From a virus, in the IMG/VR virus record IMGVR_UViG_3300036770_006434, positions 1-64,000 of that record: a stretch of 64,000 bases of DNA. The stretch is one strand, 5' to 3'. Position 1 is the first letter of the stretch, and each line of letters opens with the position of its first letter. The translations under genes and the position numbers were made by a program. This document shows, one piece after another, positions 2,997 through 49,254 of this stretch. The notes under the pieces were generated by a model. That model was given only the letters and a program-made list of their open reading frames with translations, ran no database searches and was not told where the DNA came from.

Positions 2997-3296
2997 TCAG
3001 GCGAAAGCCTCCCCCGCCCATTTGCCACCCACCCCGTTAGCAGCCTGTTTGGTGGCCATCCATTGGTGGTAAACCTCGCGGGAGCCCCAACAGTTGGCCG
3101 GCATCTCATTGTAAACGTATTGCAGAATAGCCCCGATAGCGGCCCTATTCTCGTTATCGGCGCGGTCGTAGGTTCCGAACAGATCGTTGCACAGCACGGC
3201 GCGCAGAAAGGAGCCGGTAGGAACCCCGAAGTCTGCGTAACGGCGTAGGGATTCAAGCGTGCGGGGCGGGATGGTGATGCTGTAGTCAGTTTTCAT
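2997..3296 (-). CDS. conserved phage hypothetical protein
   Basis: Motif GSFLRAVLCNDL...AD..N...P..CWGS recalled from widespread phage proteins. Confidence 0.6.
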   Translation of the reverse strand: MKTDYSITIPPRTLESLRRYADFGVPTGSFLRAVLCNDLFGTYDRADNENRAAIGAILQYVYNEMPANCWGSREVYHQWMATKQAANGVGGKWAGEAFA

Positions 3297-4123
3297 AGAT
3301 TCGTTGATGTGCCGGTGTCCGGCGAATGAAACGCGCTGTGCCCCGTGCAGTTCGTCCCATGATCGAAACGGGTGCGCTTATTGAAGAGCGGGCAATACCC
3401 CATGTTTGCCATGTCGGGACGGTAGTCCTTCTCTGGCTCCCATAGATTGCAGGTCTGGCAGATTTTGCCGCTATGAGGGGATTCAGATGTCATGTTGGAG
3501 GGAGGGTAGCGGACGGCCTCACAAAAGTCAACGCTTTTCCAGCACTCTATCAATATATTTTGTCGCATCCTTCCGGTCCGGCAGGTGCATTCTACAGAAG
3601 AGAAGGCACTCCACCAGTTCGGCATTCTCCCGATTGAGTTCGTCCATATGGTCAATAGCATTGGACATGGCCTTTTCCAGCGCACGCATGGTCAGCATGT
3701 GGGCCAAGCGTGAGGGTCCTCGGCGGCGGCGGGGGCTCATTGTCAATCTTTTTTTGGCAGACACGGGGAGTCCTCCGGGACAATGGGTGTGCATCCCCCG
3801 TCGTTACGCTCCGGGTCAATCCACCCGCCCGCGCGCAGGGCGTTTTTGTCCCCGAACGTGGCAATGAGAGTGTAAGTGTCGGGGTCTTGTCCGTCGGGCG
3901 TGTGCCACGCGGGGTGGTAGCTAACGTGCTTTTCGAGGACGAGGGCGACCGTCTCGCCGTTATGGTCCCCGATGGAACCATAGCGCAGGGCCTCCTCTTG
4001 GGTGTCCCCGTGATGCACGTCAAACGCGTCGCCGTCCGAATTGATGTGGCGCAGCTCGTATTCGGTCAATTTCAGGGTGCCGTCTTTGAGGATTCTTTCG
4101 GTTTTGGAGGGCATAGTGTGGCT

Positions 4124-45872: not shown

Positions 45873-45952
45873 TGGCACGCCCGGGAGGACTCGGACCTCC
45901 GACCTTCTGATCCGTATTCAGACGCTCTGGAATCCAACTGAGCTACGGGCGC
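45873..45952 (-). tRNA. tRNA-Arg(ACG)
   Basis: Full cloverleaf, loop AT-ACG-GA, CCA. Confidence 0.9.
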
Positions 45953-45965
45953 GTAAAGTGAAAAT

Positions 45966-46023
45966 TTCCAACGAGATACCAGAGCCAACGCCGGGACGGC
46001 GCGGCTCATCATAACTGATCGGC
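45966..46023 (+). repeat. attC site 4 (58 bp, R' core GAT)
   Basis: TTCCAAC-GAGAT-ACCAGAGC-CAACGCCG-GGA-CGGCGCG-GCTCATC-ATAACT-GATCGGC. Confidence 0.8.
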
Positions 46024-46622
46024 AAAACCTCCAAACCCAAGAAGGAGAGGAGGTCTTCATGTCTACGCCGCCCGGTATGGAATACGTAAAACTGTGGATG
46101 CAGCAGAGTGCGCTATTCTGGTCTCGGCTTCAAAGTGCCACACTACTGCATACGGGGGTTCTCGCCGCGTGGTATCAAATGGGGCCGACTCACCCGCAAT
46201 TGCGTCTTGGTGTGCTATGCATGGGTGTCGCCATATCGGGGCTTCTCATAGCTATTATGGTTCGTGACGGGCAATATATGGATGCTATGAGAGATAAGGC
46301 TACCTCGGACCATTTCCCCGCGACCGGAAAGGACGCTCCGAGTGGCAGGATGTGCGGATATTTTATCGTGGCGATACCGATGTTGGCCGAGATGACGCTG
46401 GCTTTTAATCAGGTTTGCACATGTCTGAAATGATACCCCTCCATCCAGACGGTGGTCCAAAAGCTATTCGTGTCAGAAGAAGCGATCCCGCCACGAACAG
46501 CATAAGAAAAGAAAAGCAGCCGATCCAGCCGCCAGAGCCAACGCTGGGATTTGCCGTTTTCGCGACTTCACAGGCACAGGTGACGGGTTCGGCAATTTGC
46601 CCAGCGTGGCTCATCTGGGACG
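46017..46622 (+). mobile_element. integron-type gene cassette inside the tRNA cluster
   Basis: Core GATCGGC at 46017 and exact complement GCCGATC at 46519; one plus-strand ORF between them. Confidence 0.8.
46059..46433 (+). CDS. cassette-borne membrane protein (124 aa, about 3 hydrophobic segments)
   Basis: GGAGG Shine-Dalgarno upstream; opposite strand to the phage genes. Confidence 0.75.
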   Translation: MSTPPGMEYVKLWMQQSALFWSRLQSATLLHTGVLAAWYQMGPTHPQLRLGVLCMGVAISGLLIAIMVRDGQYMDAMRDKATSDHFPATGKDAPSGRMCGYFIVAIPMLAEMTLAFNQVCTCLK

Positions 46623-46628
46623 TTGTGA
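46519..46628 (+). repeat. attC site 5
   Basis: GCCGATC-CAGCC-GCCAGAGC-CA[A]CGCTGGG...CCCAGCGTG-GCTCATC-TGGGAC-GTTGTGA. Confidence 0.85.
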
Positions 46629-46711
46629 GAAAGCAGAAAAGAGCTGCGAAGATAATGGTTTTGATCATGAGAAGCAGTATGGTCAGGTTTGCCCACTTTG
46701 TCAAGCGCAAA

Positions 46712-46744: not shown

Positions 46745-46864
46745 AAAGTCTTCGGCCGGTGTGGAGATTCTGCGCCAAAAAGAGTCTATTCCCATTTAGC
46801 TGCACACTCCGTTTGAGGCCCATTACCCTCCCCGCGTCCCGCTGCGGTCTGCTCCTGCCGAAAG

Positions 46865-46972
46865 TGGAGCCACCGACAGGGGTTAACCCTGTCTCGCAAG
46901 AACACGCGACGGTGTCTGGACGAGGATTCGAGAAACGTGAGACACAAACGAGGTGTCGGGTTTTTCAGTGGC
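46865..46972 (-). ncRNA. tRNA-Thr(CGT)-like RNA, no D arm, long structured insert
   Basis: Acceptor GCCACTG/CGGTGGC-T-CCA, hairpin GACAC-CTCGTTT-GTGTC, T stem ACAGG/CCTGT. Confidence 0.5.
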
Positions 46973-46978
46973 ATAAAG

Positions 46979-47142
46979 TGGAGCCCCTAGGTCGGATTCG
47001 GCACCGACGACCTCGCTTGTCGCGCGTCTTCATCGCAGACCCTCAATTGATGAGTCCACTAAGAGACGCACGCTTGGGTGACCAACTGAGAAGCGCGCTC
47101 TCCTGATGACCGATATTTGGTAGGTCCTGAGCTACTGGGGGC
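46979..47142 (-). ncRNA. tRNA-Thr-like RNA with expanded D loop and about 70-nt anticodon-loop insert
   Basis: GCCCCCAG-TA-GCTC...GAGC-G-CGCTT...AAGCG-AGGTC-GTCGG..CCGAC-CTAGGGGC-T-CCA. Confidence 0.55.
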
Positions 47143-47148
47143 GTAAAG

Positions 47149-47344
47149 TGGATGTCAGCTCTAGGCGTGCCCCTGATGGCCAGTTATTCCCCGACTTGGG
47201 CCATTCCGCGCGACCGGATTGGAGCCGGTTTCGGTGTTCACCTCTTCAGGTGCAGAACGATATAGTGTCGGGCAAGATGTCTACTGCACAGGGCACAAGG
47301 TTGGATTTCTCCGTCCAGTTGTAGACCCACGCATAGAGCTGACA
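47149..47344 (-). ncRNA. about 195-nt structured RNA closed by an 11-bp stem, ending TCCA
   Basis: TGTCAGCTCTA/TAGAGCTGACA plus GCGTG/CACGC; several internal hairpins; sits between tRNA genes. Confidence 0.6.
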
Positions 47345-47347
47345 AAA

Positions 47348-47423
47348 TGGAGGTCCGTGTCGGATTTTAACCGACGAATAACGCATTACAAAGGCGTTCC
47401 TGTAAACACTGAGGCAACGGACC
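47348..47423 (-). tRNA. tRNA-Thr(TGT)
   Basis: GGTCCGT/ACGGACC-T-CCA, loop TT-TGT-AA. Confidence 0.8.
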
Positions 47424-49161: not shown

Positions 49162-49254
49162 TGGCTGCTCCGGCAGGGAACGATCCTGCAATATCCTTGT
49201 AAGGGTCTTCTGCTTAACGGGCAGTGGCTTTACGCAGTTTTAAGCTACAGAGCA
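49162..49254 (-). tRNA. tRNA-Asn(GTT) with long variable region and C33
   Basis: TGCTCTG/CGGAGCA-G-CCA, loop CC-GTT-AA, 19-nt V region. Confidence 0.75.

Follow-up and report, generated by a model that had tools for sequence, protein, structure and literature searches.

A probable integron-type cassette with a natural GAT/ATC core in the tRNA cluster of a 190-kb phage genome

The window analysed here is the first 64 kb (G+C about 53%) of a 190,671-bp IMG/VR virus record (G000), a phage genome with direct terminal repeats that is complete by rating. The gene content of the phage includes a DNA polymerase, an RNA ligase and a DNA methyltransferase, as well as a TnpB-like protein, an HNH endonuclease, a dual-specificity phosphatase and a cREC_REC protein. 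Its tRNA cluster lies on the minus strand and, between tRNA-Arg(ACG) and other tRNA-like genes, a small plus-strand unit is found (cassette D), which is bounded by two attC-like elements, E4 and E5. The bases and positions quoted for this unit in an earlier note on the same DNA all hold, including GATCGGC at 46017-46023, GCCGATC at 46519-46525 and the 13 nt that separate E4, there named attC4, from the 5' end of the tRNA. The features are as follows.

45873-45952, minus strand: tRNA-Arg(ACG), left neighbour (ARAGORN), 5' end 13 nt from E4
45966-46023, plus strand: E4 (attC4), 58 nt, from attC layout, fold and alignment to attCs
45966-45972, plus strand: R'' of E4, TTCCAAC, followed by the spacer 45973-45977
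45978-45985, plus strand: L'' of E4, ACCAGAGC, followed by a stem-loop
46004-46010, plus strand: L' of E4, GCTCATC, followed by the spacer 46011-46016
46017-46023, plus strand: R' of E4, GATCGGC; the crossover would lie between 46017 and 46018
46018-46622, plus strand: cassette D, 605 bp, from ATCGGC (its own half of R') to the G that closes E5's own part
46044-46053, plus strand: Shine-Dalgarno-like GGAGAGGAGG, ending 5 nt before the ATG, with GGAGG at 46049-46053
46059-46433, plus strand: cargo gene, 124 aa, three long, largely hydrophobic helices, unnamed family (homologues, AlphaFold2)
46405-46671, minus strand: antisense hydrophobic ORF of doubtful gene status, running through E5 and overlapping the cargo gene 3' end by 29 nt
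46519-46628, plus strand: E5 (attC5), 110 nt, from attC layout and fold
46519-46525, plus strand: R'' of E5, GCCGATC, followed by the spacer 46526-46530
46531-46538, plus strand: L'' of E5, GCCAGAGC, followed by a long bulged stem
46609-46615, plus strand: L' of E5, GCTCATC, followed by the spacer 46616-46621
46622-46628, plus strand: R' of E5, GTTGTGA, end of the site

In the surrounding tRNA cluster, an (A/G)TAAAGTG(G/A) motif is seen at 45953-45962, 46861-46871, 46975-46985 and 47140-47152, just upstream (on the minus strand) of tRNA or tRNA-like 5' ends. Unusual tRNA-like RNAs occupy 46865-47142 of the window, and the tRNAs at 47351-47423, 49165-49254 and 51944-52015 were found by Rfam and missed by ARAGORN.

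Both E4 and E5 show the attC layout, R''(7)-spacer(5)-L''(8)...L'(7)-spacer(5-6)-R'(7) over about 57-141 nt, their elements being written out as R''(7)-5-L''(8)...L'(7)-6-R'(7), and 495 bp separate the two sites. They have in common RCCAGAGC-CAACG and, further on, CG(T/C)G-GCTCATC, with an identity of 17/18 over an 18-mer and 11/12 over a 12-mer, and both the L'' motif RCCAGAGC-CAACG and the L' motif GCTCATC recur in three elements at 25.5-26.8 kb. The outer triplets are canonical, with AAC in the R'' of E4 (TTCCAAC) and GTT in the R' of E5 (GTTGTGA); the cassette's own GCCGATC/GATCGGC pair departs from the AAC (RYYYAAC) and GTT (GTTRRRY) rule, and its two members, the ends of cassette D, are perfect reverse complements of each other. 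If both elements are taken as attC sites, the locus corresponds to a CALIN, with at least two nearby attC sites and no intI, and not to a complete integron, in which intI lies beside the array. Indeed, no PF00589 or TIGR02249 match, i.e. no IntI or tyrosine recombinase, was obtained in the complete 190,671-bp genome.

Taken alone, an inverted pair of 7-mers would count for little, given that the genome contains 11 copies of GCCGATC and 16 of GATCGGC; a chance resemblance to attC sites draws on the probability of about 3.5% that such a pair falls within 600 bp. However, the distance of each 7-mer from a neighbouring repeat is constant, and chance falls far short of explaining that repeat. The 12-mer CCAGAGCCAACG has exactly three copies in the genome (26005, 45979 and 46532) and a one-mismatch copy at 26322, every copy being followed by GGC(T/A)CATC, while the 18-mer pattern gives three matches with at most three mismatches against 0.16 expected. 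Refuted by these anchored statistics and contradicted by further contigs that have the same site type, chance keeps a negligible probability.

The elements at 25.5-26.8 kb make up a sister array with the following features.

25511-26798, plus strand: sister array of three cassettes with the same site type, half-site E0, then E1, E2 and E3
25992-26120, plus strand: E1, attC-type site
26309-26422, plus strand: E2, attC-type site
26701-26798, plus strand: E3, attC-type site

Throughout the four cassettes of the window, R' is the reverse complement, at 7/7 positions, of the R'' that opens the next site, the end pairs being GTTGGGC/GCCCAAC, GTTGGCC/GGCCAAC, GTTCGGC/GCCGAAC and GATCGGC/GCCGATC, whereas wrong partners match at 4-6/7 and slid offsets at 6/7 or less. 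Such chained complementary ends are the prediction of a circular cassette intermediate, and the rule extends to bona fide arrays, those carried by phage P1 (class 1 integron) and by Vibrio phage Va_90-11-286_p16. The left edge of the sister array (25511-25530) is a half-site only, GTCATATC-TACTG-GTTGGGC, and resembles the 3' end of E3 (26779-26798, GTCATATC-AGGT-GTTGGGC); GTTGGGC has eight occurrences in the genome in all, two of which are the edges of this array. With a strict R/L-box scanner, which was not specific, 38 sites were reported for the genome and 26-41 for Markov shuffles; E1-E5 were not among them. A covariance model from bona fide attCs was dropped, as the 60-nt class was not correctly aligned with the 127-nt class by MAFFT and such a model would only have suited Vibrio.

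When folded on the bottom strand, E4 displays a z score of -3.0, and in array form both E4 and E5 are near -3; E2 and E3 in array form fold no better than shuffles. Once each site is closed with the first six bases of its own cassette, a 7-bp R stem is formed in 4/4, separated by an internal loop from a long stem with a bulged base. The circular form of cassette D has z = -3.6, and a bulged A in the long stem sits at the position of one aadA7 extrahelical base. The internal loop, at 9+9 nt, exceeds that of textbook attCs, whose folded strand has an R stem, an unpaired central spacer, an L stem with extrahelical bases and a variable terminal structure; none of the three outer L-box pairs forms, nor does the canonical L-box bulge.

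Hairpins that flank small genes in a plastic region could also be regulatory repeats of the phage, comparable to the PeSL elements of T4-type phages, which Arbiol and colleagues are said to have described in 2010 as promoter/terminator stem-loops around small genes, shuffled by homologous recombination. A terminator-like site on the minus strand (46533-46515) agrees with such a role, but terminator counts are at shuffle level and the promoter of a PeSL element is missing, no promoter-like site being seen on the plus strand of E4 and E5 with the sigma-70 consensus, the only one used. Moreover, homologous exchange does not produce cassette-specific complementary ends, and the same sites adjoin IntI genes in bacteria (see below), so that a regulatory origin is very unlikely. 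Another possibility is coding paralogy, the repeats being conserved 5' parts of small minus-strand membrane-protein genes in which GTTGGCTCTGG is read V-G-S-G. The minus-strand ORFs through E1 and E5 do read VGSG and then a hydrophobic stretch; however, the frame is a different one in E4, the E1 frame started at the conserved ATG stops after 10 codons, the repeat blocks are 12, 64 and 83 nt apart and thus not in one frame, and no homology was detected among the antisense ORFs of the five contexts compared (14-24% identity). Coding paralogy is therefore extremely unlikely.

The cargo gene is single-copy in the phage genome. Its start codon is supported by eight homologues (42-59% identity) that align from the first residues, its profile recovers 243 cluster representatives at E<=1e-3, and ORF 46059-46433 is a real gene. 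The AlphaFold2 model (pLDDT 87.8) shows helices at 5-44, 46-81 and 95-123. The cargo is thus a predicted small helical membrane protein like those of the octameric membrane protein family 8xMP (Pfam PF24838), against which it scores 14.2 bits, below the 30-bit gathering cut-off; the best score among ten wider relatives is 23 bits, still below the cut-off, and 6/9 close members give sub-threshold matches on the first half of the profile. Since all of these scores are below 30 bits, the cargo family is best treated as unnamed. Searches of PADLOC, NCBIfam, PHROGs, the PDB (Foldseek and sequence profile) and the ESM Atlas returned nothing for the cargo protein, and the literature on 8xMP and RipA octamers gave nothing useful.

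The GGAGG ribosome-binding site (46049-46053), located 5 nt before the ATG at 46059 as the earlier note had it, was also said to be unlike most genes of this DNA, which holds roughly: GGAGG precedes 9/291 ORFs of at least 120 aa, a set that is itself crude. In this crude set, any 4-mer Shine-Dalgarno is present upstream of 13% of the long ORFs against 12% at random positions. Since the motif is no commoner than at random, the phage genes are mostly without a Shine-Dalgarno, and the strong one of the cargo gene is an exception in this genome. No sigma-70-like promoter was found before the cargo gene on the plus strand, the sigma-70 consensus being the only one sought.

Homologues of the cargo (41-61% identity) are flanked by attC sites in three other contigs, two of them phage-like. 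The proposal of an integron-type cassette bounded by attC sites is supported, with a protein that recurs as cassette cargo elsewhere, and the observation named beforehand as contradicting it, homologues never flanked by attC, is not what we find. In a related phage fragment (L001) the homologue lies beside an RNA ligase, between GTTAGGC and a site of the same type as in the window, GCCTAAC-AATGC-GATGGAGC-CAAC. A second one belongs to an array of at least 10 sites, different in type from those of the window, on L005, a phage-like contig that encodes RNA ligases and an intein-containing ribonucleotide reductase, and a third (L004) is between sites of a third type in a four-site array. The left neighbour of the cargo cassette is tRNA-Arg in the window and an RNA ligase in L001, a difference that is the expectation for a mobile unit. 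Homologues without flanking sites occur in Verrucomicrobiota MAGs and other bacterial contigs; in the bacterial loci L002, L006, L007 and L137 no flanking attC was found.

Further observations were made on these contigs. At L005:7672-14470, an attC-like site of ~ 140 nt, xxCSAAC-5-CGTCCAGC...CCTGACG-6-GTTNNNN, is present at least 10 times, its L boxes pairing canonically with a bulged C. This contig carries two RNA ligases, no IntI was found in the 16 kb examined, and it is also binned into a Sulfurimonas MAG (L008). On the 3.4-kb contig L004, a tRNA-His (3230-3317) comes just after the array, echoing the tRNA neighbourhood of the window. In six contexts, including bacterial ones without attC, the 3' end of the cargo gene meets or is overlapped by a small hydrophobic ORF in convergent orientation (window:46405-46671; L001:8378-8503; L005:8310-8714; L007:6332-6601; L137:1160-1432), and these ORFs showed no sequence homology to one another.

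The site type itself was compared with known attCs and searched for in other genomes. E4 is identical to class 1 attCs at 33/58 positions, in register, while the best of 20,000 random genome 60-mers reaches 29/60. It belongs to the same length class as the 60-nt aadA type (aadA1/aadA7) and keeps its 7-5-8...7-6-7 register, and the two inner stems (AGCC.ACGCCG / CGGCGCGGCT) are almost the same, down to the position of a bulged A; unlike in the aadA type, the outer L-box pairs of E4 are not complementary and its outer boxes are TTCCAAC (R'') and GATCGGC (R'). With the 5'-half search pattern AAC-N5-RCCAGAGCCAACG, arrays were found in six other IMG/VR contigs, all with L' GCTCATC, GTTRRRY cores and chained ends. 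One of these records, G007 (66 kb, complete by rating), holds a whole integron, with an integrase of 313 bits, above the TIGR02249 cut-off, and a chain of at least 15 sites, the first one 275 nt from the integrase. One TAA interrupts the IntI frame of this record (L095, G007:C1:59459-60397), so that G007 could be a prophage or else part of a chromosome that was misclassified.

In 401 sampled genomes from the phylum of a Lacunisphaera MAG (Verrucomicrobiota), a TIGR02249-type integrase above the cut-off is present in 116, and the site pattern gives 14 matches in 11 genomes against 3 for the reversed control. The IntI contig of the Lacunisphaera MAG has no repeat array, and within 1.5 kb of the phylum's 30 highest-ranking IntI loci the motif is absent; it was located once whole genomes were searched with the pattern. 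Pattern matches adjoin the integrase gene in G328 (369 bits) and G298 (327 bits), and E4 aligns in register with the short, 61-66-nt attCs beside IntI in these two genomes. The chromosomal integrons G328:C34 and G298:C27 and the record G007 hence share with the phage the attC type RCCAGAGC-CAACG...CGTG-GCTCATC and the chained ends but, unlike the phage, they have intI adjoining the array. The host lineage of the phage is probably Verrucomicrobiota.

The GAT core of the phage recurs in the bacterial array of G328, where the chain reads GCCTAAC...GATCGGC, then GCCGATC...GATCGGC, then GCCGATC...GTTGGGC. Two consecutive cassettes there (L136:3586-6320 = G328:C34:30585-33320), beside the IntI gene, have the GATCGGC/GCCGATC core of the phage and encode genes unrelated to the phage cargo. 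Another site of the same array begins with GCCGATC after a GTTAGGC end (5/7) and breaks the chain rule. Assays with IntI1 showed that substitutions at the second base of GTT are tolerated, GAT being a favoured secondary site, and that a T-to-A change with the complementary change raised the attC x attI1 recombination frequency (Frumerie et al. 2010, PMC2811028). The engineered attC and attI sites of that study are like the phage ones in having T-to-A at the second GTT base and the complementary change in the paired box; the phage core differs in being natural and in recurring in a bacterial array. Given this tolerance (PMC2811028) and the presence of the same core beside IntI in a bacterial integron, the relaxed-specificity recombination suggested earlier for the cassette is not needed, and the GAT core is unusual yet within known integrase tolerance. 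Furthermore, since both halves carry the paired change, the R stem may be under selection. The site upstream of the homologue in L001 (7861-7969), read by eye only, is GCCCACC-AATCT-CATGCAGA-CAACGCGG...CCGCGTG-TCTGATG-AATCTC-GTTAGGC; its R'' ends in ACC and not AAC, and it would be a further non-canonical core.

We consider, with a probability of roughly 0.8, that 46018-46622 is an integron-type cassette composed of one gene and its own attC (E5), inserted in E4, and acquired and movable via a host IntI. The cassette would consist of a promoterless-looking gene with a strong ribosome-binding site followed by E5, and its point of entry would be the G|NN crossover of E4, a short attC already present 13 nt upstream of tRNA-Arg. 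Its source may be the cassette pool of integrons in Verrucomicrobiota-like hosts. Because the phage has no tyrosine recombinase, any movement of the cassette must use the host IntI, which would act in trans on the folded bottom strand for the insertion and possibly the excision. The paired T-to-A and A-to-T changes would keep the R stem intact, as expected of a stem under selection. As for the cargo, it is predicted to be an inner-membrane protein made by the phage in the infected cell; a role in membrane remodelling or in the exclusion of other phages is a guess, and an unlikely one. The superinfection exclusion or competition proposed in the earlier note gains no support from the database searches above, in which the sub-threshold 8xMP match is the sole family signal.

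The main rival is block transfer from a host array, in which a two-site fragment entered the phage by illegitimate or homologous recombination and persists as a passive relic with inert sites, the cassette having never moved site-specifically in the phage. This route was raised for phage CALINs by Qi et al. (PMC9892861). It agrees with the phage being without IntI and with a cassette flanked by two complete sites, where a single IntI insertion in a plain genomic site would leave one; moreover, the R'' of E4 (TTCCAAC) has no upstream partner, GTTGGAA being found only at unrelated places. Against it, the boundaries coincide exactly with complete sites, the folds of the sites are retained, and the R'' of E4 matches the 7-mer after E5 at 5/7, which fits the insertion of a cassette into a solo attC. 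We regard a passive relic as possible but doubtful. Neither an empty site, a circle nor a close phage relative was found, and the search for IMG/VR relatives via the neighbouring phosphatase gene gave none.

Phage CALINs have been published, including attCs that are recombined by IntI1 (Qi, Rajabal, Ghaly, Tetu and Gillings 2023, PMC9892861). Like these, the cluster of the window has attC-bounded cassettes co-oriented with their sites and no IntI, and in both cases recombination is presumed to depend on a bacterial IntI; it differs from them by the probable Verrucomicrobiota host, the 190-kb genome, the two separate small clusters, one of which is within a tRNA cluster, and the GAT/ATC core. 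By comparison, the L005 array counts at least 10 sites against 2-4 per CALIN in that study (PMC9892861). The window cluster is hence a well-supported further example of a published kind, its uncommon feature being the natural GAT/ATC core.

As an integron-type cassette, the unit ties a large phage to the pool of integron cassettes in a phylum that has received little study. It offers a natural counterpart to the laboratory result that the cleavage triplet can vary freely at its middle base, and it presents a small membrane protein carried as mobile cargo by phages and bacteria alike. We may tentatively go further, though this wider proposal is itself doubtful: large phages of Verrucomicrobiota-like hosts might routinely use the host integron system, keeping functional attCs and no integrase while the host IntI swaps accessory genes during infection. 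Phage genomes, including that with the L005 array, would then take an active part in the cassette pool, within which GAT-core cassettes would circulate naturally as a subclass. If the sites are active, phages would carry and use integron cassettes in environmental bacteria, beyond the few published cultured cases.
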